Part shown: in pieces, positions 1,277 to 19,824 of the stretch
How the letters are laid out: each line of letters opens with the position of its first letter
Position numbering within the stretch: position 1 is the first letter of the stretch
Origin: an uncultured virus (IMG/VR IMGVR_UViG_3300042197_003096)
Lineage: Duplodnaviria > Heunggongvirae > Uroviricota > Caudoviricetes
Direction: 5' to 3' (one strand)
Length of the DNA stretch: 20,000 bases
IMG/VR virus record: IMGVR_UViG_3300042197_003096
Notes under the pieces: generated by a model
Told to the model about the DNA's origin: nothing
Databases searched by the model: none
The model's input: only the letters and a program-made list of their open reading frames with translations
Program-made: the position numbers and the translations under genes

Positions 1277-2036
1277 AAAATCACAAACCTGGAATCTTAG
1301 AATTATTAATTCTGGAAACTTTATTTCTTTCCTAAAGAAATTGAAATTGGTAGACAAGAGTGTACCTCTTGAACTTGAAGGAGATCAGCTTTTCGCTAAA
1401 GTACGTACACCTGACAAATCTGTTATAAAATTTGTTGGTGTGGATGTATCGGAAGTTCTCGAAGGTGACATTCCTCCGCAAAGACTAAAGATAGGGATTT
1501 TAGAAATCGGTAAACTTATCGATGTTTTCAAACATTTTGGTCCAGAGGAAGAAGTCACACTAATAATTGATTCACAGCCATATGATGGGGGATTTATCGC
1601 TACAAGTATAAAATTCTCTTCTCCTTCTTTGAATATCTTCATTAAGTGTGCAGACATTAGCCTGCTTGCTTATATTGATGACAACATCCAAAGGGGAATT
1701 CACTCCACTGAAGGATCTGAAATTAATTTTTCAATCACCCGTGAATCTTTCCAAAAGATTTCTTCTTTGACTGGGATAGAATCAAATGCGGAAGAACTTT
1801 TAAATCTAGACGTTCATGAAACTGGAGTAACGGTAAGAGGAAATTCTTTTCACTTCCATATCATTAGGGGTTCAAAGGTTCAAGGTTTTACAGAACCTAA
1901 GGTTTTCACCATATACAAAAATCAGTTCTCTTATATCGATCAAGAGGCTTCTGAAATTCATTTTCATGAAAATAGGATCGTTGTTAAATCCACCGAATCA
2001 GATTCTATTATAGCAATAGGTCTTGTTGAAATTTAA
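1269..2036 (+). CDS. Probable DNA polymerase sliding clamp (gp45/PCNA-like)
   Basis: 255 aa with an alternating beta/alpha two-domain pattern typical of clamps. Lies between topoisomerase and polymerase with overlapping/abutting ends. Inferred from size, pattern and context. Confidence 0.65.
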   Translation: MSKKSQTWNLRIINSGNFISFLKKLKLVDKSVPLELEGDQLFAKVRTPDKSVIKFVGVDVSEVLEGDIPPQRLKIGILEIGKLIDVFKHFGPEEEVTLIIDSQPYDGGFIATSIKFSSPSLNIFIKCADISLLAYIDDNIQRGIHSTEGSEINFSITRESFQKISSLTGIESNAEELLNLDVHETGVTVRGNSFHFHIIRGSKVQGFTEPKVFTIYKNQFSYIDQEASEIHFHENRIVVKSTESDSIIAIGLVEI

Positions 2037-2037
2037 T

Positions 2038-3210
2038 ATGACAGAAGAAACAGATTACAGTTCATTATCGATCGAGGAACTAAATAAGAGACTCTCAGAG
2101 TTACAGAAAAAATCATCCGATTACTATAATCAGGAGCAAGGTATTAAATTAACTCTAAACAGTATCTACGGAGCCCTCGGGAACCAATGGTTTGCCTGCT
2201 TTAATCCTGATGTTGCTGAGAGTGTAACTCTACAGGGGCAGGACATCTGGAGGTTTGCTGAAAAAATCATCAATCGGTACTTTAATGATATGTGGCACCA
2301 AGACACCGAGCTCCACGAAAAGATGGGAGTTAGGAATGTCAGAAAGTTAAATATGGATTTAATTATCTACGGTGACACAGACTCGAATTACATCAACCTC
2401 GGAGCCGTTATGGATTCCTGTGAGTTTGATTACGAGCCTTTTGAGTTCGTGAAAAAACTCAACGAGTTTAGACTCAAAGAGTACATTAAAAAGTGCTACG
2501 ATATTTACTCCACTAAATGGGGGACAGACAACTACCAAGATTTTGAATTGGAAAGCCTTTCATATTCAGGAATATTTTTAGGAAAGAAAAAATACGTTCT
2601 TGACATTGCCTGGCAAGATCCAAACAAGGATATGTTTCCCAAGCTTTCTAAAATAAAATCTACAGGTATAGAGTTGGCCCAAGGAGGCACTGCTCCTTTT
2701 GCAAGGGAAAAACTGACCTTCTTACTTAGACACATTTTTGATCGGGGTAAAAGTTTTGATATCAGGGAGTTTGTAAAGATCCTGAAAGAGATCAAAAATG
2801 AATTCAAAGTACAGAACCCGGACCAGGTGGCAGTGGGAACAGCAGTTAACAACATAGAAAAATTTATCATTAACGATACAAACAAATTCGAAGTTGCAAA
2901 AGGGTGTCCAATGCACGTTAGAGCTGCTGGATACCATAACTACCTTCTGAACAACTCAAAGTATAAAGCCAAATACAGCCTTATAAGATCTTCGGAGAAA
3001 ATCAAATACTATTTTGTTAAAGTCAAGAATGAACAAGAAAATAACGTCTTTGGTTATCTGAACGGTTCTTATCCTTACGAAATAGCACCACCGATAGATT
3101 ACGATGAACAATTTAATAGAGTGATCCTAGATCCAATTAACAGATTCGTGGAATCTATGGGATACACTCCACTTTCTCCAAATCTCCTCCTGGTAAGATC
3201 TCTTTTCTAA
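2038..3210 (+). CDS. Family B DNA polymerase, C-terminal subunit (split polymerase, gp43B-like)
   Basis: Motif B (KLTLNSIYG), motif C (YGDTDS), KKKY and K-x-x-G-I-E thumb motifs are present; exonuclease domain and motif A are absent. ATG at 2038 chosen over the upstream TTG. Confidence 0.92.
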   Translation: MTEETDYSSLSIEELNKRLSELQKKSSDYYNQEQGIKLTLNSIYGALGNQWFACFNPDVAESVTLQGQDIWRFAEKIINRYFNDMWHQDTELHEKMGVRNVRKLNMDLIIYGDTDSNYINLGAVMDSCEFDYEPFEFVKKLNEFRLKEYIKKCYDIYSTKWGTDNYQDFELESLSYSGIFLGKKKYVLDIAWQDPNKDMFPKLSKIKSTGIELAQGGTAPFAREKLTFLLRHIFDRGKSFDIREFVKILKEIKNEFKVQNPDQVAVGTAVNNIEKFIINDTNKFEVAKGCPMHVRAAGYHNYLLNNSKYKAKYSLIRSSEKIKYYFVKVKNEQENNVFGYLNGSYPYEIAPPIDYDEQFNRVILDPINRFVESMGYTPLSPNLLLVRSLF

Positions 3211-5551: not shown

Positions 5552-6280
5552 ATGGGGAAAAGACCAAAGAATTTCGACTCAGTCTGGAGCTGGTTCGACC
5601 ATAATGTGGACCTAGAATCTAGAACTATTTACATGGGCAGTATCTCCAGTGACTATGAAAATAATGAATCCGGTGTGGATCATTTGATGGCAGAGTATAT
5701 CATCAAGGGTATTCATCTTTTAGAAGAAAGATCCGAAGAGGAGATACTAATCCTTATGAATAATCCAGGCGGAGATTGGTATCATGGTTTGGCAATCTAT
5801 GATGCTGTAAAATATTCATCTTGTCATTGCAGAATAAAGGTGTACGGGCACGCAATGAGTATGGGAAGTTTAATCTTACAAGCAGCTGATTCTAGGATTA
5901 TGATGCCAAACAGTAAATTCATGATCCATTACGGGTATAACGGAACAGTCGGACATTCTAAAACCTTTGAAAGGACTGCTGACGAGGGTAAGAGAATCAA
6001 CTACCAGATGGAGAACATTTATCTGGACGAAATAATGGAAAAGGAAGAGGAAGAAGGACACGGACATATCGCCAAGGTTCTTTCTAAAATTATGAATAGA
6101 CTTAGATCTTTCGAATTAAATCCCACCTTAGCTTCCTATAAATTTTCCAAACACCAAGAATCAAAAAAGGAAGAGATTAGAGCAGTTTTAAAAGAAATGC
6201 TTAATTTTGATACATATTTGGATGCACAAGAAACAGTAGATCTGGGATTAGCAGATTTCGTTTTTGGTGAGGAAGAATAA
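5552..6280 (+). CDS. clpP: ClpP-family serine protease with a ~45-aa insertion
   Basis: MNNPGGD..HGLAIYD, catalytic Ser in AMSMGS, His in PNSKFMIH, Asp in FDTYLDAQETVDLGLAD. Confidence 0.92.
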   Translation: MGKRPKNFDSVWSWFDHNVDLESRTIYMGSISSDYENNESGVDHLMAEYIIKGIHLLEERSEEEILILMNNPGGDWYHGLAIYDAVKYSSCHCRIKVYGHAMSMGSLILQAADSRIMMPNSKFMIHYGYNGTVGHSKTFERTADEGKRINYQMENIYLDEIMEKEEEEGHGHIAKVLSKIMNRLRSFELNPTLASYKFSKHQESKKEEIRAVLKEMLNFDTYLDAQETVDLGLADFVFGEEE

Positions 6281-6289
6281 ATATAACAC

Positions 6290-6764
6290 GGGCCATACGG
6301 GAATCGATTGGCAACGAAGTTCTTTGACGTGATGCAGGCAGTGTTAGATGGAAACACTTTAATCCCCTATCAAAACAATAACCGGCAACTCTTATGTTTC
6401 CGCTGAGGGAGACCTCGTACTTGATGGCCTAGCTATCGAGTTTGCTGAACCTGCAATGGCAGCCTAAGCACCGGGCGGCAACTGCCCGGATTAAACAAAG
6501 TTGCAAGCGGCAAGAAAAAAGGTTCGTAGTATTGCCTTTGAACGTTGAGTGGAACCTTGAGATCACATCAATACCCATTAAGATCGGCACTATCGATGTT
6601 CGGGAAATTTGGATCATATCCGGAGAGTAACCCTGACTGAGCGTTAAGTCTGAAAGAAAAAAGAAACGCACCAAAGTTTGTTGATGTCAATAAATCAACT
6701 AAGCCTGTGAAAGAACGCATTTAGCTTGTTGAGCAAGACGGGGGTTCAACTCCCCCATGGTCCA
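6290..6764 (+). ncRNA. ssrA: tmRNA (one-piece, ~475 nt)
   Basis: Acceptor stem GGGCCAT (6290-6296) pairs with ATGGTCC (6757-6763), with a G3.U wobble (Ala identity) and discriminator A6764. T-arm GGGGG-TTCAACT-CCCCC. P2 pairings GTTCTTT/AAAGAAC and GCAGGC/GCCTGT. PK1 AGTGTT/AACACT with loop GATGG/CTATC. Second pseudoknot CCGGGC/GCCCGG with GCAACT/AGTTGC. Internal tag frame ends AA-stop. Confidence 0.96.
6384..6467 (+). other. tmRNA tag reading frame: (A)GNSYVSAEGDLVLDGLAIEFAEPAMAA*
   Basis: Resume context AATAACC|GGC has U at -5 and A at -4, just after PK1; 27 codons end GCA GCC TAA. Confidence 0.85.
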
Positions 6765-6769
6765 CTAAG

Positions 6770-8637: not shown

Positions 8638-9075
8638 TTACAATTTTTCTACTTCGAAAGAGAATTCTCTTGGCTCGTCTGGATTGAACGTGGATTGAGA
8701 GTATTCAAAATTTGACACTATCAATTCACAAAATTTATTTAGGATTTCTTCTTCTGTTATTTCTAGGTTTGTCTCTTCCAAAAGCCCTCTTATATTAAGC
8801 TTATACTCACAGAGCATTCCTAAATTGTATAAAAATTCTGAGTATTCATAAGAATCGTCCGAGGGAGTCGGAGGATCTTTAAAAATGGAGGTTAAAAAAT
8901 CCCAAAGAATTTCTTCCCAGTCTTCTTCATCCACAGTAAAATATCCCGATTGGTCCCACTCTTGAAAAACGATATTATAAATAAGATCGGTTCTAGATCC
9001 ACCTTTTATGTCTAATGTGAAAACTAATTCCCCTTCTTCGTCATCTGTGAAAAAATCTACCTTGTATTCTGTCAT
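8638..9075 (-). CDS. Hypothetical acidic protein
   Basis: 145 aa, strongly acidic, start overlaps the stop of the upstream minus-strand gene. Confidence 0.75.
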   Translation of the reverse strand: MTEYKVDFFTDDEEGELVFTLDIKGGSRTDLIYNIVFQEWDQSGYFTVDEEDWEEILWDFLTSIFKDPPTPSDDSYEYSEFLYNLGMLCEYKLNIRGLLEETNLEITEEEILNKFCELIVSNFEYSQSTFNPDEPREFSFEVEKL

Positions 9076-9680
9076 TATTTCTTTATTAGATACCCAGAAA
9101 GAATTGCGACTAACTCCGTAATGTCTTCTTTGATGTCTTCTGTCACTTCTATTCGAGTTTTAACCGTGTGAAATTGTAAAAATCCAATTAACTGCCCTGA
9201 AATAGTTCTGATCGGTGCTGTAGAAATTTGTAAAATTCCTTCTTGAGTCACTCTTTCTCTTAAATAATCCAAAACCGGATCGTTAGCATCCACACTAAAA
9301 AAATCATTCTCGCTCAGATGTTTCATTAACGACGGATGCTCTGTTACAAAAACACTTTGATTGTGTTCTTTAACTTTTGAAACCCCCGAAGCAGTTGTCT
9401 CAAACGTCTGTGAGTATTTTTTCATAGGAACGCCATGAAAAAATTTTCCACCGTTATGGAACTGGAAGATCCCTATTCTATCTAGATTCCATTTCTTTCT
9501 GAATTCCTCTAGAAAGTTTTGGATCTCTATCATGTTGTCCACATCCTTTTCTGAAATTCTCTCGTGATCTTCTTCGTCGAAAGCTTTTTTTCTAGTGTCT
9601 AAAAAGTGTTTGAGCCAAACTGAACCTAGTGCCACAGCCAAAGAAAATAAACCGGTAATAATTATTTGTAAAAGCTCCAT
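9075..9680 (-). CDS. Single-TM protein with GAF-like soluble domain; possible T4 T-like holin
   Basis: N-terminal hydrophobic helix (IIITGLFSLAVALGSVWL), then DRIGIFQFHNGG...APIRTISGQLIGFLQF with GAF-like topology. The holin role is an inference from architecture. Confidence 0.5.
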   Translation of the reverse strand: MELLQIIITGLFSLAVALGSVWLKHFLDTRKKAFDEEDHERISEKDVDNMIEIQNFLEEFRKKWNLDRIGIFQFHNGGKFFHGVPMKKYSQTFETTASGVSKVKEHNQSVFVTEHPSLMKHLSENDFFSVDANDPVLDYLRERVTQEGILQISTAPIRTISGQLIGFLQFHTVKTRIEVTEDIKEDITELVAILSGYLIKK

Positions 9681-9706
9681 CTTTGTCTTAGCCCCCTTTT
9701 TTTTAA

Positions 9707-10297
9707 TTAAATTCCGAATCTTCCCATAACTTGAGAACCTTTGATTAGTTTGTCGTCCTTAAGGCTGGGTGGAATAGTTTTAAATTTGGAAACTAAAGTT
9801 GGCTCCTTTTTAAGTTTTCTGATGATGAGGTCCTTGTAAGATTCTGGGCTATAAACTTCTTCTTCTCCGATCGGGGCACCTTCCATTTTCATCACGTATT
9901 TCACTAAGAAATTCATTTTATAAAGATAATCCTCGACAGTCATACAAGATCTTCTAAGGTCCGTGTTCAAACGAGGAAACTCCGAAGATTTTGATGGACC
10001 GGTAACCACTCTGATAGAACCGTTGTGTTGAATATTGTACTGGGGATATCCAGATTTTGGGCTTCTCATGCTCTCGTGTTTGAAAGCAATGTTTCCTAGC
10101 CTATCTTTGAAATATCTTTGTTCTTCTGGACCGCTCTTTTCGATACCAATGGGATTTTCTGCAATCATTTCTGACCATCCCATCCCGTTCATATCTTTGT
10201 AAATTTCAGATTCCCTAATGGGCTGAAAACTTAGAACTGGACATTTTTTGGGTCTTCTAACCTCGGTGACACTTCTAAAATTTTTGTATGATTTCAT
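9707..10297 (-). CDS. Hypothetical protein, putative head-internal protein
   Basis: ATG 10297 (MKSYKNFRSVTE) downstream of AATATATA (10326-10319); C-terminus KGSQVMGRFGI. Confidence 0.75.
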   Translation of the reverse strand: MKSYKNFRSVTEVRRPKKCPVLSFQPIRESEIYKDMNGMGWSEMIAENPIGIEKSGPEEQRYFKDRLGNIAFKHESMRSPKSGYPQYNIQHNGSIRVVTGPSKSSEFPRLNTDLRRSCMTVEDYLYKMNFLVKYVMKMEGAPIGEEEVYSPESYKDLIIRKLKKEPTLVSKFKTIPPSLKDDKLIKGSQVMGRFGI

Positions 10298-10366
10298 ATC
10301 TTTTGGAGTATTTGTCTCTATATATTCAAACACTTCGCGGACTCCCGAGATTTTTATAAATACTGT

Positions 10367-10395
10367 GAAATTTTTCTATTTATTGTCAGTATATG
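10367..10395 (+). promoter_or_regulatory. GAAATTT-N16-TATATG promoter motif variant
   Basis: Same spacing as the other GAAACTT-N16-TATAA copies; points at a mini-ORF/hairpin and terminator. Confidence 0.45.
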
Positions 10396-10397
10396 TG

Positions 10398-10451
10398 ATG
10401 TCATCGCAACAGTTAAATCTTTGGCTGTTGTTCCTTATATTCCCCTTTTAA
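10398..10451 (+). other. Candidate 17-aa hydrophobic peptide MSSQQLNLWLLFLIFPF, or small RNA
   Basis: ATG 2 nt after the -10-like hexamer; stop merges into a terminator; internal hairpin GCAACAGTTA/TGGCTGTTGT. Confidence 0.35.
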
Positions 10452-10477
10452 CCCGATTCTTAGGAATCGGGTTTTTT
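10450..10477 (+). terminator. Intrinsic terminator
   Basis: AACCCGATTC-TTAG-GAATCGGGTT, perfect 10-bp stem followed by TTTT. Confidence 0.85.
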
Positions 10478-10494
10478 GTTTGGAGAATCTTCTA

Positions 10495-10502
10495 TATGTT
10501 TG
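10495..10502 (+). promoter_or_regulatory. Bacteroidota sigma-A -7 element (TAnnTTTG)
   Basis: TATGTTTG followed by CAAC-ATG (10507); TTTG copies at 10475 and 10479. Confidence 0.6.
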
Positions 10503-10506
10503 CAAC

Positions 10507-11040
10507 ATGAAACACATAAATTTTCTGCACATCATAGAAAACCTTTCTGTACCCCGGTCAGTTTTGGATAGGTACGAGAAGTTGAAGGCTCTTAGAGAAA
10601 GGCCGGACTTCCACCCGGAAGAAAGTGCGTTTGAGCACATCAAGATAGTTACCGATCGGCTGATCCAGACAGGAGACCCAGATCTCATTGTTGCTGGTAT
10701 GCTTCACGATCTTTTTAAATGTGATACAGCTCAAATTAATCCTAAAACCGGATATCCAACTTGTCCAGGACATGATGTTGCTGTAGCGAGCTTTATAAGA
10801 CGTGACGAAGAGGTTCAACAGTGGATCTCGTCAATGGGAGCGGATGTTCAAATGGTGGAGAACCTTTGCAAGGACCACATGAGATTCCATCAATTTGGAC
10901 AGATGGGAGGGGTAAAGCAAAAAGAGTTTACGAGTAGGCCACACTGGAAAAAGCTAGAAGTCCTGGGTGCGGCAGATAACATGCTAGAAGATTTTGATTT
11001 AGATCACCTTGAAAAATCATGGAAATGGAAAAGAAAGTGA
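10507..11040 (+). CDS. HD-domain phosphohydrolase (similar to the HD module of CCA-adding/HD-Pnk end-healing enzymes)
   Basis: RPDFHPEESAFEH, AGMLHDLFK, PGHD, HM.FH and AAD motifs; overlaps the RNA ligase start. Confidence 0.8.
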   Translation: MKHINFLHIIENLSVPRSVLDRYEKLKALRERPDFHPEESAFEHIKIVTDRLIQTGDPDLIVAGMLHDLFKCDTAQINPKTGYPTCPGHDVAVASFIRRDEEVQQWISSMGADVQMVENLCKDHMRFHQFGQMGGVKQKEFTSRPHWKKLEVLGAADNMLEDFDLDHLEKSWKWKRK

Positions 11041-12122
11041 AATATGACATTGAAACATTAGAGAGGTACCACAAAGAGGGGCTTTTAGAAAAAAATGAGC
11101 ACCCTTCTTTACCTTTGATTATTTGGAATTATTCCAGGGAATGCCAATACGAGGGCAAGTGGGACGAGATCACCCTTAACATGCGAGGAACGATCACCGA
11201 TAGGGAGGGAAATTTAGTGGCTTCAGCTTTTCAAAAATTCTTCAATTATGAAGAGGTGGCAGACAAAGTGCCAACCACAGGGGACTATGTTTATGTTCAG
11301 GAAAAAATGGATGGATCTCTGGGAATTCTTTTTTGGTACGAAGGGGAATGGCATCTAGCTACCAAAGGCTCTTTCACTTCCGAGCAAGCAAAAAAAGGAA
11401 TGGAGATTCTTAAGAAGAAATATACTCTTGATGCCTTTCCGCATAAACACGTCACATACCTGTGTGAAATAATTTACCCGGATAATCGGATCGTGGTTTG
11501 CTATGAAGGGGAAGAAAAAATCGTATTCATTGGTGCAACCACAGGAGGAGAAGAACTGCACTGGACCACTGCTGAAATGATTTTCAAAGGATCTGGAATT
11601 AAATCAAAAGATATAGTTAAGACCGAGCAGCATTTTCAATTTGATAAATCCCTTTACAAAAGACTGAAAGAACTGAACACCGAAAACTCCGAAGGTTTTG
11701 TCCTGAGGTTCCAACCTGGTAATTTCAGAATGAAAATTAAATTCGAGGAATACATCAGATTGCATTCTTTATTAACCTCTTTTTCTAATCTTGACATTTG
11801 GAGATTTCTAATGAGCGGTAAAGACCCAGAAGAACTTCTGGTCAGAGTCCCCGATGAGTTTGATTTGTGGGTAAAAGAAAACTTAGCTTCTCTAAAACAA
11901 CACTACTCTCTAGTCGAGGACGAAGCCAAAAAAATCTTCGAAACGGTAACCAGGGAAAATCTCTCCAGAAAAGAAATAGCAGAGATACTTAGAAGAACGG
12001 TAAACAAAACTGCAATGGCTATTGTTTTCAGTATGTTGGACGGTAGAGATTATTCCGAAATCATTTGGAGATCAATACGTCCTAAATACCAAAAACCCTT
12101 CTGGCAAAGGAAAGACGATTAA
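11019..12122 (+). CDS. T4 Rnl1-family RNA ligase
   Basis: RG..D..G...A..F.KFFNY, motif I EKMDGSL, ATKGSF, CEII, motif IV EGFVL, motif V MKIKFEEY. Confidence 0.93.
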   Translation: MEMEKKVKYDIETLERYHKEGLLEKNEHPSLPLIIWNYSRECQYEGKWDEITLNMRGTITDREGNLVASAFQKFFNYEEVADKVPTTGDYVYVQEKMDGSLGILFWYEGEWHLATKGSFTSEQAKKGMEILKKKYTLDAFPHKHVTYLCEIIYPDNRIVVCYEGEEKIVFIGATTGGEELHWTTAEMIFKGSGIKSKDIVKTEQHFQFDKSLYKRLKELNTENSEGFVLRFQPGNFRMKIKFEEYIRLHSLLTSFSNLDIWRFLMSGKDPEELLVRVPDEFDLWVKENLASLKQHYSLVEDEAKKIFETVTRENLSRKEIAEILRRTVNKTAMAIVFSMLDGRDYSEIIWRSIRPKYQKPFWQRKDD

Positions 12123-12127
12123 TCTGT

Positions 12128-12155
12128 GTAACTTCTTGGAATTTTGGGATATAAT
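12128..12155 (+). promoter_or_regulatory. GTAACTT-N15-TATAAT promoter motif variant
   Basis: Intergenic, 7 nt before ATG 12163. Confidence 0.5.
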
Positions 12156-12162
12156 ATCTTGA

Positions 12163-13146
12163 ATGTCTCAAAAAGAAATAGAAGAAAAATTCACAGAATT
12201 TCAAGAGTATTTCAATCAAAAGGGATTAACCTCTAATATCTCCAGAAAGTTTCTTGTTCCCTTTAAATCACACGTTGAAGAAAATCCAAGATCCTTTTTA
12301 AAGTTTTGGAATTTTATTAAATCTCTTTGGCCTTTGGATATGAGGGAAAAGATAAACAAGCTCAATAGTGTTAACGAAAAAAGTCCTTTTTTTAAAACAT
12401 TCTTTTTTGTCGCTGATTGGAGTCATTCATATTTAGGTCCGGCAGAAATTCTTTTTCTTCTTGTTGTACAAGATAGTCGTTCAGGAAGGAAAAGATTTCC
12501 AGATCTTGTCTTTGAAAACTCTACGGACAGAATAGAAATCAAATCCTACGAAGGAAATTTTAGGCTGACCGAATCAACTTTCTTCTTTACTGATTTAGGA
12601 ACAATAATTCAAGCACTGGTTCAGGGTGGATTTATGTTAAGCCTCACCGATATTAACAACAACGATCTTAGAAAAGGAATCAGGCAATTCTGCGAAAGTT
12701 TTTTATGTAAAAGAGGATTTATAGAATTGAATTCTAGGATATGGAAACTGGAATCTAAAACGGATGACACTATGGTTTTTAAAATCAGTCCAGAAACGTC
12801 TAGGGAGATAGTTAAATATTCTATAGTTAGAAACTCCCTGAGAAATTGGCTTAGTAGAGGAACTCTCAGTATAAAACTTGGTGAAATAATTGATCCGACT
12901 AGGGTTTCTAGGATCTCAAAAAAAGAATTACAGGATTATGTCAAATGTTTATTAGGAATGGAAGACAGAGCTCCAATTCCTCTTGAACAATATTTCAGTC
13001 TTTGTGAAATAAGTTCTTTGGTCTTATACGAAAAGAAAAATAAAAGAGAGAAATTCCAATTAGTCCTGTTTGATGATCTGAAAAATTTCTCTATAGATAG
13101 GATAGGACAATCTAAAGTTTCTTATAAAAAGAAGATAAGATCTTAA
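12163..13146 (+). CDS. Putative PD-(D/E)xK nuclease-fold protein
   Basis: Helix GPAEIL, then FPDL and IEIKS, spaced like a PD-(D/E)xK core. Confidence 0.55.
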   Translation: MSQKEIEEKFTEFQEYFNQKGLTSNISRKFLVPFKSHVEENPRSFLKFWNFIKSLWPLDMREKINKLNSVNEKSPFFKTFFFVADWSHSYLGPAEILFLLVVQDSRSGRKRFPDLVFENSTDRIEIKSYEGNFRLTESTFFFTDLGTIIQALVQGGFMLSLTDINNNDLRKGIRQFCESFLCKRGFIELNSRIWKLESKTDDTMVFKISPETSREIVKYSIVRNSLRNWLSRGTLSIKLGEIIDPTRVSRISKKELQDYVKCLLGMEDRAPIPLEQYFSLCEISSLVLYEKKNKREKFQLVLFDDLKNFSIDRIGQSKVSYKKKIRS

Positions 13147-13967
13147 CCACCTAATCTTTTCATAAAGGGCATTGCTTTTGAGATCTTAGATTTAATCTCT
13201 TCCATTTCTTTTCTGATTGGCATATCAAAAACCTCTGCTCCTTTTTCCACATGATAAATCACCTCTTTGTTTCCGAGATATGTTGCTATTCTTTTTATGT
13301 CTGGGTCATTTGCCTTTTCTATCAAACTCACGTAAGCCTTCTTAGCTAATTTGGGATCTGCCTGCCTCATCCATTCCACCAAAGCAGCTTCAAAGCTGTA
13401 ATCCCTAACCATTTTACCTTCGCCACCCGTGAAAAGTGTTTGTTGTGTCCACCACTTAAAAAAATCATTTAGGTAATCCTTTCCAAAATCCACCATATCT
13501 AAAACCACTCTGTATGCCTCGGTGAAGGCGGACTGACTTTGTTTTTTGGTGTAATTTTCTGGGATTTTTAAAATAGACCTACTAACTGTTTCTTCTATAC
13601 TCTTTTCTGAATCTGGTTCTTTTATTATAACCCCTAGATCTATCATTTTAAGAGTTACACCAAAGCTTTCCTGAAATTTTTTAAGTTCTTTTTTAATGGA
13701 GCCGTAACTTTGGTTTGAAGTGAAGGTGATGTACATTATTCTATCATTTGCTATTTTAGCAGTGTTTACGTCTATAAAATGGGTGTTAAATCTATTATAA
13801 ATGTAAGACGAAGTTAGCCAATCAAACATCTCCATGATTTCCCTTCCACCTTTAGGTGTGGTTTGGTTTGCTTCAAAAGCAAAATAATTTGGGAACGTTG
13901 AGATTCTTGAGGAAGAGTCTTTAAATTTTTCCCAGGTACTGATTTTCTTTTTCTTCCTTTTTTTCAC
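13143..13967 (-). CDS. Hypothetical protein, putative head-internal protein
   Basis: Long ORF; probable GTG start at 13967 just downstream of GATATATA (13980-13973); C-terminus KAMPFMKRLGG. Confidence 0.75.
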   Translation of the reverse strand: MKKRKKKKISTWEKFKDSSSRISTFPNYFAFEANQTTPKGGREIMEMFDWLTSSYIYNRFNTHFIDVNTAKIANDRIMYITFTSNQSYGSIKKELKKFQESFGVTLKMIDLGVIIKEPDSEKSIEETVSRSILKIPENYTKKQSQSAFTEAYRVVLDMVDFGKDYLNDFFKWWTQQTLFTGGEGKMVRDYSFEAALVEWMRQADPKLAKKAYVSLIEKANDPDIKRIATYLGNKEVIYHVEKGAEVFDMPIRKEMEEIKSKISKAMPFMKRLGG

Positions 13968-13987
13968 ATCTTTATATATCAAAACGA

Positions 13988-14016
13988 GAAACTTATACCT
14001 CCTTTCTTGGTATAAA
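13988..14016 (+). promoter_or_regulatory. GAAACTT-N16-TATAAA promoter motif
   Basis: GAAACTT 13988-13994, TATAAA 14011-14016, upstream of ATG 14044; back-to-back with a GATATATA motif on the minus strand. Confidence 0.65.
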
Positions 14017-14043
14017 TTAAGTACATAAACAATTTAATTTATT

Positions 14044-14268
14044 ATGAGTAACAAGACCAAAGCAAAAAGACCTTCAACGAGTAAGGCAAAAAACACGAAT
14101 CGAGTGGTTATTCCTGTAATCCAGATGACTCCTCGCGGACGTCGTATTAAGAAGTTTACTTCTATGCACGCAGCTGCGAATCACACTGGAGTGAATTCCG
14201 GATCAATTTCACAAGTTGTGAGAGGAATTCGTCAAACTGCAGGGGGTTTCCGTTGGGCTACTGCCTAA
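14044..14268 (+). CDS. Stand-alone NUMOD1-type helix-turn-helix DNA-binding protein
   Basis: VIQMTPRGRRIKKFTSMHAAANHTGVNSGSISQVVRGIRQTAGGFRW matches the NUMOD1 pattern; basic N-terminal tail; no acidic residues. Confidence 0.85.
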   Translation: MSNKTKAKRPSTSKAKNTNRVVIPVIQMTPRGRRIKKFTSMHAAANHTGVNSGSISQVVRGIRQTAGGFRWATA

Positions 14269-14297
14269 TTTGGACTATTTGATTGATTGATTGAACG

Positions 14298-14327
14298 AAA
14301 AGTCCCAGAGAAATCTGGGACTTTTTT
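14298..14327 (+). terminator. Intrinsic terminator
   Basis: AAAAGTCCCAGA-GAAA-TCTGGGACTTTT plus T-run; GNRA loop. Confidence 0.9.
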
Positions 14328-14390
14328 GTGGGAAACGGTTTTTTTGTTGGTGGATAATTCTATAATTTTACCTTAACAAACAAAAAGGAT

Positions 14391-14894
14391 ATGAAAAAGC
14401 TGATCACAATCTTCACCCTGGCACTCTTAAACGGACAAGGATTTTCTCAGGATTTTTATAAACAATATGCCACAGAAAAGGCTTTGGTTATTGTAACCCC
14501 GGGGACAGAACACGAAGATTTTATTGACGGGTTTGACGAAAATGGAGAGCCCGTTTACAAACAAAAAGAAGTTCCTTCTTTTAACTACGGAATCAGCCCA
14601 GTCTTACTGGACTCTGTTACTTTTTATTCAGTTAGAGACTCTTTCTTAAGGGATCAAAATTTTGTTTTCTCTGAACTAAGAATTGTTGACTTCGACGACG
14701 TTTATTGCTACGAGTGTGATTCCACCCTTAATCCAGATTATGAACACGAGTTCATTAGTTATCGCTACCTTTTTGGAGAGGTTTCTGATGAATCGTCTGT
14801 AAAGAATGAAAAATTCGTTTACTATTTTGTCGGAAAAACCGCGGAGGGTGTTTATTGTCTTCACTCTCTGATGGGAACCAAAAGGGAATTCTAA
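14391..14894 (+). CDS. Secreted/periplasmic hypothetical protein
   Basis: Sec-type signal peptide MKKLITIFTLALLNGQGFS|Q, with Gln at +1 as in Bacteroidota exported proteins. Confidence 0.75.
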   Translation: MKKLITIFTLALLNGQGFSQDFYKQYATEKALVIVTPGTEHEDFIDGFDENGEPVYKQKEVPSFNYGISPVLLDSVTFYSVRDSFLRDQNFVFSELRIVDFDDVYCYECDSTLNPDYEHEFISYRYLFGEVSDESSVKNEKFVYYFVGKTAEGVYCLHSLMGTKREF

Positions 14895-14895
14895 G

Positions 14896-16053
14896 TTAGA
14901 ATTTTCCTTCTCCGAAATCTAGAGTTTGCATTCCTTGTTGGCCCCCTGTTGGTTTACCAGAAGCATATTGATGTTCTGTTTGAACAAACTCCATCCATTT
15001 CCTAGCCAACTCTTTACTTGGGACTCCAAAACTTTTCTTTAAGATCCCCGAAGCTTCAGGGAGTAAAGAATCTATTTTTTCAGAAAACCCTTCAGGTCTA
15101 GAAGATTCTGATACGTGATCTATCACTTTGTTACAAACCTCGATAAATTTAGCTATCCCCGAATCTGTGAACGTGATTTTACCCTCTGTGTTTTTGTAGT
15201 TGGATTTATTAGAAAGAAATGATTCTAGATCTCCTTTAACATCAATTGGTTGGGAGTTTGCTAAAAACTTTTTTGTTATCAGCCCCTTTTGCATTCTTAT
15301 GAACGTTTCGTTTATAAGCTCTGCCTGTTTTTTGGGATCTTTTTCCTCCTGTTTGTAAGTTTCGTACCCTTGGCTAAGTTTGTCCTTTACCTTTCCTCCT
15401 GCTTGTTGCACAGTAGCTGTACAAATCAGACTGTAGATAGTGTTCATCCAAGATTGGTTGTTAGATCCAGACCAAGCGCCAAGCCATTCGTTTTTCCTTT
15501 GGTCCTTTGTACCCATTTGGATGTTTATCACATAACCCTGTGTTTGATTTAGGGTCAATCCAGCCGTTTTATAAAATCCTGTGATACCATCATTTCTTTT
15601 TACCCCGTCTTGGTCGCCGTATTTTCCTGCCAGTCTATAGAGCATAAGGACTCCGTTGTTTGAAGCCTCTATAACCATCTCTTTTCCTGCTACTTCGGAT
15701 TTATTGAGATTTATTTCCCCCTTTTCTTCTATGCTTCTATCGTTAATTTTTAGGATATCCTTACCTGCTGAAACCTTATCACCTTCAACCACCGTCATCG
15801 AATCTTTCTTTTTTTCGGCTAAAGTCATCAGAGGAAATTCTTTTGATAGACCTTTCAAAGAATCTAAGCCGTTTTTAAGAGTGATCTTGTACCTGACGTC
15901 TTTCTTTATGCCCATATCTTTGGCTAATGAATCCGTCACGTCGGACTCGCTAGTACTGGCAGCGATAAAAACCACACCCTCTTTTTTCTCTTCCTGTTCG
16001 AATACGAAATTTTCAAGAATAAATTCGGAGAAATTTAAAATCCTTTTTTCCAT
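14896..16053 (-). CDS. Hypothetical protein, putative virion-internal protein
   Basis: 385 aa; N-terminus MEKRILNFSEFILE; AATATATA at 16077-16070 upstream. Confidence 0.8.
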   Translation of the reverse strand: MEKRILNFSEFILENFVFEQEEKKEGVVFIAASTSESDVTDSLAKDMGIKKDVRYKITLKNGLDSLKGLSKEFPLMTLAEKKKDSMTVVEGDKVSAGKDILKINDRSIEEKGEINLNKSEVAGKEMVIEASNNGVLMLYRLAGKYGDQDGVKRNDGITGFYKTAGLTLNQTQGYVINIQMGTKDQRKNEWLGAWSGSNNQSWMNTIYSLICTATVQQAGGKVKDKLSQGYETYKQEEKDPKKQAELINETFIRMQKGLITKKFLANSQPIDVKGDLESFLSNKSNYKNTEGKITFTDSGIAKFIEVCNKVIDHVSESSRPEGFSEKIDSLLPEASGILKKSFGVPSKELARKWMEFVQTEHQYASGKPTGGQQGMQTLDFGEGKF

Positions 16054-16088
16054 TTTGTTTTATTTTGTTTATATATTTTTAGCTAAGA

Positions 16089-16694
16089 TCAGAACCATTT
16101 ATAGATCATCCCTAGATAACTTTCGAGTAGGTTCCACTTTTCTTTTATTTCGTCTTGGGTTCTAGATTCCGTGAGATAAACTATTGTGTTATTGTCTCTC
16201 CTTGTTTCAAAACCAGGAATCTTAACATCAAAAGCTTGAACATACCCGGAGGAGGGACAAACTCCCAAACACCCTTTCTTTTGATGAGCCATACCTCTTC
16301 CAATAAATTCGTCTTTATTCCAAGGCAAATTAAAATTTTGGTATCTGTAAACCGATTGGTGCTCCGTTTCCGGATCTTGTAGAACTATCCCCTTTCCTTT
16401 AATTCTTGATTCCTGGTCTTTTAATTCGTCCCAAGTCTGAGAATAAAAATCAGGTTCGGCTATGTGTCCTGTGCACGAAGGAGTTGTTGGAATTCCTGCT
16501 TGGTGTAGTCCCTTGACCACATTAACAAATTCAGGATCTAAAGTTTTGTAAAAATTTTCAGATCTAGGTAGGGTGTGAGAAATTCTGGGGACCCCGTTCC
16601 AGTACCATTTTGGTCCATCTTTTTCCTGATACCAAGAAGCATGATGAAATCTAGAATGTGGTATAAAATCTGGGCTTAGGATTCTTGAATCCAT
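16089..16694 (-). CDS. Hypothetical protein with GIPTTPSCTGH motif
   Basis: 201-aa ORF in the minus-strand run. The T-x-x-SC-x-GH motif recalls the Tyw3-like TTSSCxG motif; weak evidence. Confidence 0.7.
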   Translation of the reverse strand: MDSRILSPDFIPHSRFHHASWYQEKDGPKWYWNGVPRISHTLPRSENFYKTLDPEFVNVVKGLHQAGIPTTPSCTGHIAEPDFYSQTWDELKDQESRIKGKGIVLQDPETEHQSVYRYQNFNLPWNKDEFIGRGMAHQKKGCLGVCPSSGYVQAFDVKIPGFETRRDNNTIVYLTESRTQDEIKEKWNLLESYLGMIYKWF

Positions 16695-16697
16695 CGA

Positions 16698-17240
16698 TTA
16701 AGGTTCTATTTCTAATTCGTCAATATTAGGAACAGTGAATTCGATCTCTTCTGTCTCTTCCTCGTGTTCGTCACAATGGGATTTTAAAAAATTGTAAACC
16801 TCTTCCACGTCGTCTTTAGAAGTTGCAATGTGATCAACTGCCCAACCGTGGCCATCGGAAAGCACGTGATCTACCTTGTGGTGATCCATGTCCATGATTT
16901 CTTGGCACATTCTGCACATGTTTTTCACATTTGCGAAGAACATGTAGTTGTCGTGTTCGTTGTGTCCCTCACCTAATCCTACCAGGGTCTTAGCAAGATT
17001 CAATCTTCTGAATTTCTTTAGGTCTGGTTTGCTTAGGCCTTGCACTCCTGGCTCTTCTTTGTCCTTGTCTTTCTTCTTCAATTTAGAAAGCTCGTCTTCG
17101 ATCTTGCTTTTGGTCAGGGTTTCTTCCTGTCCCATGTGAAGCTGCTTCTTTAAGGTCCCTGGTTTTTTAATGGCTCCAGCGATCCATTTATCTGATTTTT
17201 TTTCAGAAAGAAAACTTTCGAATGATTTAATCTCCTTCAT
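16698..17240 (-). CDS. Hypothetical two-module protein, putative virion-internal
   Basis: N-terminus MKEIKSFESFLSE; basic module KWIAGAIKKPGTL...RLNLAKTL; His/acidic module NYMFF...DGHGWAVDHIATSKDDVEEVYNFL; GATATATA at 17260-17253. Confidence 0.8.
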   Translation of the reverse strand: MKEIKSFESFLSEKKSDKWIAGAIKKPGTLKKQLHMGQEETLTKSKIEDELSKLKKKDKDKEEPGVQGLSKPDLKKFRRLNLAKTLVGLGEGHNEHDNYMFFANVKNMCRMCQEIMDMDHHKVDHVLSDGHGWAVDHIATSKDDVEEVYNFLKSHCDEHEEETEEIEFTVPNIDELEIEP

Positions 17241-17264
17241 GTTTTTTTTTCTTATATATCTAAT

Positions 17265-17810
17265 TTATAAACCCAACCTTTTGATGTAGGGAAGTGCTTT
17301 CTTAAATTCTTCGGATCCTATGTTTTTCCATCCCGTTTTTTCTTCTGTCTCTTTCTTTTTACTTTCTGGAAGTAGAGAGTACAATTTCAAAAGAACGTCT
17401 GGAAAATTTAAAAGATACTCCTTCATGATTGTTGCAGGATCAAAAGTTTTTAAGTCAAAAGTGGCATTAATGTCTTCATCATACCATTCCACATCCTCTC
17501 CGGGTTCTTCCCATCCTCTAGCTCCAGCTCTCATGTAAAGGTATAGTCCTCCTTCCAGATCTGCAGATGATGTCAAATCCCAGTCACCTTCCCCTGTGTA
17601 TTCCCAAGAGTCAAAAAAATATATGTTCTGTATTTCACCGTTTGGAAAAATCACCGGCCAATCTCCTTCACCATAAAAATCCGTTGGAAATTGGAGTTTA
17701 AATTTTCCCAGCCAGTCCGAGATAACAGGATCCCTTTCAATTTCTGTGAGTTTTTTTCGGTCCCACTCTTCGTGGTCTTCAAAGATGACAAATTCTTTAA
17801 TGTGCTTCAT
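17265..17810 (-). CDS. Hypothetical protein, putative head-internal protein
   Basis: N-terminus MKHIKEFVIFE; C-terminus KALPYIKRLGL; ATGA-coupled to the upstream gene. Confidence 0.8.
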   Translation of the reverse strand: MKHIKEFVIFEDHEEWDRKKLTEIERDPVISDWLGKFKLQFPTDFYGEGDWPVIFPNGEIQNIYFFDSWEYTGEGDWDLTSSADLEGGLYLYMRAGARGWEEPGEDVEWYDEDINATFDLKTFDPATIMKEYLLNFPDVLLKLYSLLPESKKKETEEKTGWKNIGSEEFKKALPYIKRLGL

Positions 17811-18547
17811 GATTCGAGTTCCTTTTTATATTGCTTAAATCTTCTGTCATAGAATCCGAGAAATTCCTCTAAAGATGCTCCCTCCAGTTCTTTCATTTCA
17901 GAAGAAATAGGTTGTCCGGATTCTTCTTGGTTAACATAGTTAACATAAACACTGAACCAAAGATCCGGAAGCTCGTTGAAGTTTTCAAGATCGAATTCAT
18001 TAGGAAGAGGAGTTAACGAGGAAAGGTATTTTGCAAAAGAACGAGGATCAAAAGTTCCCATCCACCCAATCATTTCTTGAGTCATTGGATCTTTGTGCCA
18101 TCTCAATTCTGCTCTTTTAGCTTCCACTTCTATAGGATCCGTAAGATATATGGCCATAAGTAATCTTTGCCACTGCTCATCTTCAGAGAACACCTCAAAT
18201 TCCCTTGTTATATCAGTTGTAAAGAGATCTAATTCACCATCTCTGACAAACTGTAATACATGGACCAATTCATGAGCTAGGGTGCCTTTGTGTTCATTGT
18301 CTTCCCTCTGTTTTGGTGTTATCAGAATAACTATTTTTGCTTCCGTGGAAGAGAAGGAATCAAACTGGGCATTCGCAGAAATATATGGATCCTCTACAAT
18401 TTCCAGATCTGGATTTTCAGAGATCAATTTTTCTTTTGTCTCCTCCCAGATCGGAAATCCTGCCAGAAGTTCTTCACACGTTTCAACCAGACCTTTTTGT
18501 TCCAATCCAGAAGATTCAAATATTCTAAATGCTTTTAAGTGTCTCAT
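17807..18547 (-). CDS. Putative zincin-like metallopeptidase with CTS-like N-terminus
   Basis: TLAHELVHVLQ (HExxH) plus downstream Y...PIEVEA (third-ligand Glu); N-terminus MRHLKAFRIFES. Confidence 0.7.
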   Translation of the reverse strand: MRHLKAFRIFESSGLEQKGLVETCEELLAGFPIWEETKEKLISENPDLEIVEDPYISANAQFDSFSSTEAKIVILITPKQREDNEHKGTLAHELVHVLQFVRDGELDLFTTDITREFEVFSEDEQWQRLLMAIYLTDPIEVEAKRAELRWHKDPMTQEMIGWMGTFDPRSFAKYLSSLTPLPNEFDLENFNELPDLWFSVYVNYVNQEESGQPISSEMKELEGASLEEFLGFYDRRFKQYKKELES

Positions 18548-18870: not shown

Positions 18871-18895
18871 TCATTATATATCGGAGATTAAATTT

Positions 18896-19354
18896 TTAAG
18901 AATTGGATTCGTTTGACCGCGGCTCTGAAAAAATTCCCTCTTTGATCATTTTATTCAGAAGTCTCTTGTTATCTATTCCTGGGATCTCAGAGTGTTTCCA
19001 AGATATAAATCCTCCAAATCTGACTCCTCCCTCGTTTTCAAATTGGACCCCTGGATCAACACTCGGAACACCGAATATCTCGACTTCTCCAAAATTTTGA
19101 AATTTTACACCTTTGGAAATCACTTTCACATCAGATATAAAAACATCACCGGAGTTGGCGAAAACCGTGCCCGGTGGTAGGTATTTTATCCCACCCAGGT
19201 CCACATATCCCATGTTTCTAAATTCTACACCAGGAGGAATTTCAGAAGTGTAAAAATTAAAAAATTTGTCATGTGATATAATAATCCTATCTCCTATGAT
19301 CGTGTATTCATATCTGAGGTCACTGAGTTCTTGTAGAAAAAATTCTCTTGTCAT
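18896..19354 (-). CDS. 20-aa-repeat (LRR/beta-solenoid-like) protein, diverged paralog
   Basis: Repeats of the form IPPGVEFRNMGYVDL; shares N-terminus (MT.E.F...L....Y.Y.I.GD.I...H) and C-terminus (G.DNKRLLN.MIK) with the next gene. Confidence 0.8.
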   Translation of the reverse strand: MTREFFLQELSDLRYEYTIIGDRIIISHDKFFNFYTSEIPPGVEFRNMGYVDLGGIKYLPPGTVFANSGDVFISDVKVISKGVKFQNFGEVEIFGVPSVDPGVQFENEGGVRFGGFISWKHSEIPGIDNKRLLNKMIKEGIFSEPRSNESNS

Positions 19355-19800
19355 ATAAATAACTCTTTTTTAATCATCAGATTCAACAACCTCTTGTTGT
19401 CGACTCCTTCTATCCTTATTCCTTTATTATCCTCCACCCAACCTAAACCCAAACTAGTCAAAATGACATCCCCACCGTTCTTAAAATGGAAATCAGGAGG
19501 AAGGGTCTGGAGGCTCCTCAAATTGACCAACCCACTATTCTTAAATTGGACACCAGGAGGAAGGGTCTGGAGGCTCCTCAAATTGACCCACCCCTTGTTC
19601 TTAAACTCCACACCAGGAGGAAGGGTCTTGAGGTCCATCAACCAGACATACCCCTTGTTCTTAAACTCCACACCAGGTGGAAGGGTCTGGAGGCTATTCA
19701 AATCGACACCCCCTCGATGTGTCACCAGGATCTTGTCACCCTTGATCTCGTAGGAATATCCTTTCTCTTCTAATACCCCAATAAATTCTTCTTGTGTCAT
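19351..19800 (-). CDS. 20-aa-repeat (LRR-like) protein
   Basis: Four copies of V.L.SLQTLPPGV.FKN.G.; ATG 19800 just after GATATATA (19813-19806). Confidence 0.85.
   Translation of the reverse strand: MTQEEFIGVLEEKGYSYEIKGDKILVTHRGGVDLNSLQTLPPGVEFKNKGYVWLMDLKTLPPGVEFKNKGWVNLRSLQTLPPGVQFKNSGLVNLRSLQTLPPDFHFKNGGDVILTSLGLGWVEDNKGIRIEGVDNKRLLNLMIKKELFI
19471..19710. repeat. Intragenic 60-bp tandem repeat x4
   Basis: AAGGGTCT recurs at 19501, 19561, 19621 and 19681; 19501-19528 is identical to 19561-19588 and 19591-19617 is identical to 19651-19677. Confidence 0.95.
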
Positions 19801-19824
19801 ACTCTTATATATCATTTAGATACC

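Follow-up and report, generated by a model that had tools for sequence, protein, structure and literature searches.

The 20,000-nucleotide stretch of DNA examined here (IMG/VR record IMGVR_UViG_3300042197_003096; hereafter the window, on which all positions are counted) derives from an uncultivated T4-like jumbo phage. Its plus strand carries T4-type replication genes, and the products encoded on this strand include a topoisomerase II subunit, an exonuclease, a P-loop kinase, a ClpP-family protease, and RNA ligase 1; minus-strand genes with no assigned function are interspersed among them. Three minus-strand genes, termed g18, g22, and g28 below, encode proteins that end in a similar peptide of some ten residues (the tail), which is the subject of this work. 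A preliminary description of the window regarded this peptide as a portable C-terminal address tag paired with an N-terminal signal.

The three tail-bearing genes and their families

The three C-termini read from the sequence are exactly those claimed in the preliminary description, namely LIKGSQVMGRFGI, ISKAMPFMKRLGG, and FKKALPYIKRLGL, each directly followed by the stop codon, and share the pattern K-[GA]-x-x-h-h-x-R-[FL]-G-x. The genes and their tails are as follows.

9707..10297, minus strand: g18, 196 amino acids (aa) from the ATG at 10297; leader MKSYKNFRSVTE, tail KGSQVMGRFGI
9710..9742, minus strand: g18 tail, K-G-S-Q-V-M-G-R-F-G-I
9707-9709, minus strand: stop codon of g18, after LIKGSQVMGRFGI
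13143..13967, minus strand: g22, approximately 274 aa from the GTG at 13967; tail KAMPFMKRLGG
13146..13178, minus strand: g22 tail, K-A-M-P-F-M-K-R-L-G-G
13143-13145, minus strand: stop codon of g22, after ISKAMPFMKRLGG
17265..17810, minus strand: g28, 181 aa; leader MKHIKEFVIFE, tail KALPYIKRLGL
17268..17300, minus strand: g28 tail, K-A-L-P-Y-I-K-R-L-G-L
17265-17267, minus strand: stop codon of g28, after FKKALPYIKRLGL

For g18 and g22, the starts at 10333 and 13982 that had been taken from the long open reading frames (ORFs) are probably not the true ones. We regard the ATG at 10297 and the GTG at 13967 as the probable starts, because alignments A1 and A2 support the shorter proteins and a RATATATA motif (see below) falls inside the long ORFs.

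The window found no match among phage records at the DNA level, no match to g18 or g28 was obtained by tblastn among 50,697 phage records, and searches of viral contigs with g28 or g22 as a single protein found no relatives. A full HMMER search with g22 recovered 19 representatives of its family, 18 of which were aligned with the window protein (alignment A1; one protein of 1995 aa was left out). Scanning IMG/VR with A1 yielded three contigs, G001, G002, and G003, of 191, 130, and 248 kb, respectively, which were taken whole, in overlapping pieces. They are syntenic with the window, their replication proteins are 75-86% identical to those of the window, and g18, g22, and g28 each have tail-bearing homologues in them. 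The window and the three contigs constitute the four-genome set of 857 proteins (316, 346, 164, and 31) used below. The wider sample comprised 43 metagenome loci, and ten metagenome genomes were added to give the 14 genomes from which a set of 58 tails was obtained.

When 32 window proteins were compared pairwise over their last 11 residues with BLOSUM62 (496 pairs), the g22 and g28 tails scored 38, a value with a null probability of 2.1e-6 per pair and thus 0.001 such pairs expected. The g18 tail scored 13 and 12 against the other two, ranking 5th and 6th of the 496 pairs with 1.5-2.1 pairs expected. Within the window alone, two tails are clearly alike and the third, that of g18, is suggestive only. 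We nevertheless accept the latter as a member because the relatives rescue it: it fits the g22-family consensus KKGxxLLxRFGx better than the tail of g22 itself does, scoring 15.4 in a position-specific scoring matrix (PSSM) trained on the g22 family, and it is conserved in its own family.

The bodies of the three proteins are unrelated, as had been claimed. BLASTP aligned the tail alone, and hhalign comparisons of the three family profiles recovered either 17-18 tail columns only or 41 weak columns at a probability of 6%, so the three are not full-length paralogues. The g18 family is the most conserved of the tail-bearing families, with 90 clusters in a collection of 5.8 billion proteins at 43-98% identity, and 85 of the 87 full-length homologues retain a tail-like core at the C-terminus, the typical end being DLGKGAS[IM]LKRFG[AG]F followed by acidic residues. 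KKGxxLLxRFGx terminates 17 of the 18 g22 homologues in A1, down to 23% body identity. A g28 homologue at 77% identity retains LPYIERLGL, and the g28 homologues in G002 and G003 end in FKGG[NS]LLNR[LF]GDI. Because the tail persists at such divergence of the g22 bodies and in nearly all members of the g18 family, we judge it to be under selection.

In the AlphaFold2 (AF2) models of the g22 and g18 families (predicted local distance difference test, pLDDT, 83.7 and 78, respectively), the tail is helical with a pLDDT of 62-65 in the last block, and in the former it is the end of the helix spanning residues 257-276. Neither model had a Foldseek match in PDB or BFVD at E <=0.001; a wide VIA-align search gave best Z scores of 6.9, for a 56-residue helical hairpin, and 5.1, for PsiB, both below the noise level stated for the tool, and a protein atlas yielded no usable match.

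Two further observations concern these genes. Residues 1-44 of g22 (13836-13967, minus strand) are the most conserved part of the family and comprise a poly-K run followed by I.TW/F.. (KKKKRINTFKNWLLARDSSSRISTFP.Y in relatives); AF2 leaves them disordered (pLDDT 41-55), and they may represent another linear motif. The g18 gene heads a conserved three-gene operon (8638-10297, minus strand), in which the product of the second gene (9075-9680; phrog_30125) has an N-terminal transmembrane helix and is 69-71% identical in relatives, and that of the third is acidic and 145 aa long.

C-terminal restriction, portability, and concerted change of the tail

In the related contigs and metagenome loci, the canonical tail is KG[GAS][SG][LI]Lx[RK]FG followed by 0-10 often acidic residues, and the form found in the lineage of the window is [KR]-[GA]-x-x-[VFY]-[MI]-x-R-[FL]-G. 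There are three tail proteins in the window and 9-12 in each related contig. The enrichment at C-termini expected of an address tag was found in the 857 proteins by three kinds of scan. The regular expression [KR][GAS]..[LIVMFYW][LIVMF].[RK][FLYM] gave 28 matches, 16 of which lay no more than 6 residues from the C-terminus. With a PSSM built from the regular-expression seeds, the best 27 of all 12-mers sit 0-11 residues from the C-terminus, and a score of >=7 defined 34 tail proteins. A non-circular test used a PSSM trained on the 18 non-window g22 homologues, with the g22 family excluded from the scan: at a score of >=14, all 19 matches were located within 12 residues of the C-terminus (1.23 expected from the share of positions, and 0.05 matches per shuffle in the shuffled control), and at >=10, 25 of 30 were C-terminal.

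After removal of the last 25 residues, the 34 tail proteins fell into 14 BLASTP body families, and the 58 tail proteins from 14 genomes into 15 unrelated ones. Thus, the portability claimed for the tag is borne out by 15 families carrying it almost exclusively at the C-terminus; the interpretation as a whole found partial support. The 181 residues that follow the ..FG core contain 53 D/E against 10 K/R, and acidic residues follow the core in 28 of the 58 tails and 71 of 85 g18 homologues. By inspection, no L/I-x-E site consistently lies ahead of the tail.

Outside the clade, we looked for the tail at both the sequence and literature levels. A strict back-translated DNA pattern matched 13 times in G001-G003 and never in the reversed control. 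The back-translated canonical pattern was not found in LR756500, MaF61, Lak-A2, MA9V-2, or PTm1, and had no exact match in T4, an absence that applies to the canonical form only since the pattern would miss the tails of g22 and g28. The C-termini of T4 IPII and IPIII are not the tail, and the 678-aa protease-containing frame of G003, which bears on the idea of a tag at a scaffold end, ends in ...AAELEKRFKK and not in the tail. No published description of such a tail was found in the literature on capsid targeting, jumbo phages, and encapsulins, supplementary files not being covered, and six tail hexapeptides had no occurrence in the literature text searched.

The tails of one genome change together. 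The column occupied by R in 24 of the 25 other tails is N or K in all nine G001 tails (Fisher 1.9e-7). The central hydrophobic pair is VM, FM, and YI in the three window tails, whereas the 31 other tails have no residue but L, I, or M in the first hydrophobic column, and in the second, 30 have L and one has I. Two of the window tails (g22 and g28) also have A in place of G and a proline in common, and in alignment A3 the window KALPYIKRLG occupies the place of KGG[SN]LLNR[FL]G of the homologues. The window variant is kept at two metagenome loci that are 93-98% identical to g18 (L040 and L041), and other variants were observed elsewhere (M-L in L055 and L065, L-[KR]-x-F-G in L060, and RFK/RFR ends in L072-L075). 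Across the 14 genomes, tails of different families were identical on average in 5.38 of 10 columns within a genome versus 4.71 between genomes, a difference matched by none of 2000 within-family permutations of the genome labels. As the tails of one genome resemble each other, one common partner is indicated, and selection by such a partner would be the simplest cause of the concerted change.

The preliminary description also related the ends of two repeat proteins to the tail, and this relationship did not hold. The two proteins, encoded at 18896-19815 on the minus strand (18896 and 19351), are paralogous and composed of units like LQTLPPGVEFKN.G.V.L. Their family has 4-6 members per genome, all ending in GIDxKRLLNxMISKGxF. 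The common end is therefore explained by paralogy and lies outside the portable-tail system.

The N-terminal leader, the RATATATA motif, and T4-type head genes

The features discussed in this section are listed below.

10262..10297, minus strand: g18 leader MKSYKNFRSVTE; MKKYQEFRTIRE and MSIKNYxxFKKIQE, then VRR, in homologues
17778..17810, minus strand: g28 leader MKHIKEFVIFE, ending in I-F-E, a site of the L/I-x-E type
10319..10326, minus strand: AATATATA, 21 nucleotides (nt) upstream of the g18 start; late-promoter-like
13973..13980, minus strand: GATATATA, 5 nt upstream of the g22 GTG
18875..18882, minus strand: GATATATA, heading a three-gene operon from 18870 to 17265
3229 and 5528, plus strand; 10319, 13973, 16070, 17253, 18875, and 19806, minus strand: all RATATATA sites of the window
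14896..16053, minus strand: neighbouring gene with a leader-like N-terminus (MEKRILNFSEFILE) and no tail
16698..17240, minus strand: neighbouring gene with the leader only (MKEIKSFESFLSE), no tail
17807..18547, minus strand: neighbouring gene with the leader only (MRHLKAFRIFE), encoding a zincin-like HExxH protein, no tail

In T4, the ten N-terminal residues of IPIII are enough for encapsidation (PMC9026906 and PMC3012670); residues 4 and 7 of the leader target the protein, and gp21 cleaves after L/I-X-E (PMC9026906). All three tail proteins of the window had been said to carry an N-terminus like this capsid-targeting sequence (CTS). The resemblance is clear for g28 (MKHIKEFVIFE) and g18 (MKSYKNFRSVTE), and g22 fits loosely only, with a poly-K run followed by ISTWEKF. 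The g18 protein starts with MKSYKNF and its homologues with MKKYQEFR...E-ARR, and T4 IPII and IPIII start with MKTYQEFIAE. Candidate cleavage sites within the leaders are I-F-E in g28 and V-T-E in g18, the latter being I/L-x-E in homologues.

In the four-genome set, the leader pattern M-K-x-[IL]-K-x-F-x-x-[FL] was found in 14 of the 34 tail proteins versus 44 of the 823 others (odds ratio 12.4), that is, in 58 of the 857 proteins overall, 44 of them with no tail. The leader (M-K-x-I-K-x-F-x-x-F) is thus a portable tag itself. It is often followed by [LI]-N-E-[SA], and 21 of the 52 occurrences of [LI]NE[SAG] fall within the first 30 residues, with 7.3 expected.

The RATATATA motif proved to be real: the window contains 8 copies where 1.03 would be expected, and every copy is on the sense strand, 4-21 nt upstream of a start. 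The assignment of the three genes to units headed by the motif also stood: it directly precedes g18 and g22, and g28 is the third gene of the operon headed at 18875-18882. Across the four genomes the motif precedes 134 of the 857 genes, namely 19 of the 34 tail genes versus 115 of the 823 others, and it is also found before a PHROG 'virion structural protein' and before the gene lying upstream of the protease-capsid block. With the T4 late promoter TATAAATA as the analogue, RATATATA is a probable late promoter; its late status is inferred, since PHROGs left most of the large genes preceded by the motif unnamed. The very short spacing between motif and start at some genes implies leaderless or near-leaderless mRNAs, if the promoter reading is right.

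The window stops short of the head module, and the head genes are known from the relatives. A gp21-type protease (PF03420) and a gp23-type capsid protein (PF07068) were detected above the cut-off in G003 and G001, two of the three related contigs. The G003 capsid protein (20315-22039; L015:1315-3039; alignment A5) has an invariant ...CHFHSLNE-SAGAYN near residue 43. This is the [LI]NE[SA] site that also follows the leaders, and it is probably the propeptide cleavage site. With 2341 members of the capsid family at E <=1e-20, the clade is abundant, and the capsid protein links it to Lak and other huge phages as well as to jumbo phages of Flavobacterium, Chryseobacterium, Tenacibaculum, and Sphingomonas. 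No match to the portal family PF07230 was found in G001-G003, and the gene of 863 aa located upstream of the protease does not resemble the MaF61 portal. A coiled-coil tail protein of G001 (25208-25774) was considered as a scaffold candidate and rejected, as it has no homologue in the other contigs and does not lie in a clear head module. Prediction of a complex between the G003 capsid protein (A5) and the last 52 residues of the g18 homologue (A6) gave a score of 0.00, which is informative neither way.

Other features of the window are as follows. The family-B DNA polymerase is split, and the window has the C-terminal half only (2023-3210, plus strand), which is at most 38% identical to those of uncultured 460-735 kb phages and Lak phages. 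Ahead of it lies an ORF of 255 aa (1269-2036, plus strand) that is 76-80% conserved in relatives and belongs to no Pfam or PHROG family. Positions 6290-6767 (plus strand) encode a phage tmRNA (Rfam RF00023, 55.3 bits with a gathering threshold of 47, E 6e-21, full-length model), for which ARAGORN gave no report. Spurious ORF translations over this region are conserved in G002 and G003, and because of this the relatives probably carry tmRNA as well. The ClpP-family protease at 5552-6280 (plus strand; PF00574, 6.7e-28) lies behind a AATATATA motif and ends in ...DLGLADFVFGEEE; the G001 copy is 67% identical, a further, distant ClpP-like gene (26-29% identity) occurs in G003 and in G001, and G002 gave no match. 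A small NUMOD/HNH-like DNA-binding protein (PF22083, phrog_20162) is encoded at 14044-14268 (plus strand), and its position is kept in G002 and G003.

Candidate roles of the tail and comparison with known systems

The portability, C-terminal restriction, conservation, and concerted change of the tail, together with its association with the leader and RATATATA, are firm at the level of the sequences. We propose a portable docking function for the tail, as a short linear motif that is most likely a C-terminal cargo signal for the assembling prohead, and assign this reading a probability of roughly 55%. The clade would have grafted one ten-residue peptide onto the flexible C-termini of approximately 15 unrelated families of late proteins, and the peptide would plug all of its carriers into one partner protein, with the result that the tails of one genome drift together. 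That a single common partner exists is likely. That this partner is phage-encoded and located in the prohead, as a component of the scaffold core or the inner capsid wall, we rate at somewhat less than an even chance; the grounds for this placement are the T4-type head genes together with the leader and the late-type motif. In the proposed mechanism, the N-terminal leader would be cleaved at its putative L/I-x-E type protease site, and the tail, having no adjoining protease site, would stay on the mature protein and provide a second signal for cargo loading, at the C-terminus, comparable in action to the C-terminal targeting peptide of encapsulins. A two-ended head-cargo code in the full sense, that is, a cleavable T4-type leader plus a retained C-terminal peptide that docks to the prohead interior in the encapsulin style, is a tentative and rather doubtful extension of this proposal.

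Several observations weigh against a docking motif for the prohead. The two-signal code of the preliminary description is not strict: a statistical pairing of leader and tail stood, but 20 of the 34 tail proteins lack the leader by regular expression, in addition to the 44 leader proteins lacking the tail. The leader also occurs on a bona fide adenylate kinase of G003 (118393-118986; L020:4393-4986; PF00406, 3.1e-37, domain from residue 20), which would be an odd capsid cargo and weakens the capsid-targeting reading of the leader. The capsid proteins are 81-100% identical among the 120 relatives listed and the tails differ markedly between lineages, a combination that would be awkward if the capsid wall were the partner. 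In G003, the tail genes are remote from the capsid gene, at 139-221 kb, with one weak match at 11 kb, against 20.3-22.0 kb. Neither the three tail proteins of the window nor the 31 of the related contigs received a functional assignment from Pfam and PHROGs, and packaging into the head, ejection, and docking to the portal, as suggested in the preliminary description, are candidate roles. The concerted change itself could alternatively stem from recombination between tails, since 5 of the 7 residues in which the tails of g22 and g28 agree have the same codon in both. The counts should be read with two properties of the data in mind: homologues are common to several genomes, so that cross-genome counts are not independent, and genes were called as greedy longest ORFs, those crossing the edge of a 20-kb piece being cut N-terminally.

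The concerted, lineage-specific variants would fit any common partner, host or phage. If the partner were a host protein, the tails would dock injected or late proteins onto one host hub, and their co-variation would result from different hosts. The carriers evolve fast (27-69% identity versus 75-86% for the replication proteins), as is typical of host-interaction genes, but no host motif class matches, the capsid-targeting-like leader and the late-type motif point to assembly, and g18 is highly conserved (90 clusters at 43-98%), unlike an arms-race effector. A host hub is, hence, an unlikely partner. We also regard as rather improbable that the tail is an amphipathic helix of the MinD/FtsA type, which would anchor the proteins peripherally at the inner membrane of the host, either during assembly or once they have been ejected. 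The tail resembles the end of Escherichia coli MinD, KGFLKRLFGG (PMC5471200), in being C-terminal and predicted helical, in starting with KG, in combining hydrophobic and basic residues, and in ending with FG; AF2 places it at the end of a helix, and g18 is co-transcribed with the gene for the transmembrane-helix protein (9075-9680). On the other hand, the tail differs from MinD in the acidic extensions after the core (the above-mentioned 53 D/E versus 10 K/R, where a net positive charge would be expected) and has three hydrophobic positions only. A docking pocket is favoured over a lipid surface because of the position-specific conservation of K-G and R-F-G and the genome-wide switches, such as that from R to N/K in the nine G001 tails.

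C-terminal degrons are a known class, and a degron or protease tag would deliver the carriers to the phage ClpP-like protease (5552-6280), host Clp/Lon, or the prohead protease. A ClpP-family protein is encoded in the window and in G001, and T4 Alt and gp21 lose C-terminal pieces (PMC9026906). There is, however, no consistent L/I-x-E before the tail, a degron would have no obvious rationale on the most conserved family, g18, or on 9-12 proteins per genome, and with the further ClpP-like genes of G001 and G003 being distant and none matched in G002, we consider this possibility quite improbable. Recruitment to the phage sliding clamp on DNA, in the manner of T4 gp43, is very improbable. The polymerases of the window and all three relatives end in NLLLVR[SA]LF, so that, unlike the gp45 clamp motif of the LDFLF type, the tail is absent from the DNA polymerase. 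No clamp gene was recognised in the Pfam and PHROG scans, the ORF at 1269-2036 having no family, and the carriers are late proteins with leaders and no replication domains, not replication or transcription factors. The points in favour of a clamp tail are the presence of T4-type replication genes in the window and a loose likeness (K-A/G-S, hydrophobics, FG) to the end of T4 gp43, EKASLDFLFG, which binds gp45 (PMC6212786). Lastly, chance resemblance or hidden paralogy might be argued from the tail of g18, which is not significant by itself in the window. We rejected this explanation as having a negligible probability, given the 0.001 pairs expected to match that of g22 and g28, the 19 of 19 C-terminal matches in the non-circular test, the restriction of the hhalign alignments to the tails, and the 15 body families.

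Portable head-addressing peptides in tailed phages comprise, to our knowledge, a single case, the N-terminal CTS of T4, which underlies the T4 protein-delivery technology. A second, C-terminal tag would mark genes that are otherwise impossible to annotate as one functional class, probably of packaged or co-assembled proteins and possibly of anti-defence cargo. The ten-residue peptide would also serve as a handle for finding the common partner by pull-down, and a tag of this kind would offer a new way of loading foreign proteins into phage heads. The drift of the tails genome by genome would be a clean natural case of a peptide motif co-evolving with its receptor, to which the window adds the divergent variant of its lineage, KA[ML]P[FY][IM]KRLG, in two proteins. 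If the partner were the capsid interior, cargo loading in phages and encapsulins would be linked. If the two-ended code were true, the system would represent a phage counterpart, possibly an ancestor-like form, of encapsulin cargo loading, through which a phage could load, and also exchange, a large repertoire of injected proteins that evolve fast.

The scaffolding proteins of P22 and herpesviruses hold to the inner capsid wall during assembly by a C-terminal coat-binding end. Their tail is present on one scaffold (or on a nested scaffold/protease), in contrast to the many unrelated cargo families considered here. Closer to the present case, cargo of family 1 encapsulins also carries a C-terminal peptide of approximately ten residues on unrelated proteins, which docks inside an HK97-fold shell. 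The consensus of this targeting peptide, SDGSLGIGSLKRS (PMC8346489), and the g18-family end DLGKGAS[IM]LKRFG have Gly/Ser, Leu, and Lys-Arg in common (LG.G.S.LKR), a likeness seen by eye. It requires a one-residue gap and may be coincidental, so that we take it as a lead only. The putative cargo genes, in contrast to those of encapsulins, are not beside the shell gene (G003), and the encapsulin pocket involves an N-terminal helix absent from phage capsid proteins (same source).

The tail differs from the T4 CTS in being C-terminal, in its sequence, in having no adjoining L/I-x-E, and in probably not being removed. Like the tail, the CTS of T4 (IPI-III and Alt) is a short terminal peptide on otherwise unrelated polymorphic late proteins (PMC9026906 and PMC3012670). 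Many of the tail carriers additionally possess a leader of the form M-K-x-[IY]-x-x-F ... [LI]-x-E, in which g28 and g18 conform to the pattern of residues 4 and 7, and genes for head proteins of the T4 kind, a protease of the gp21 type and a capsid protein of the gp23 type, are present in G001 and G003.

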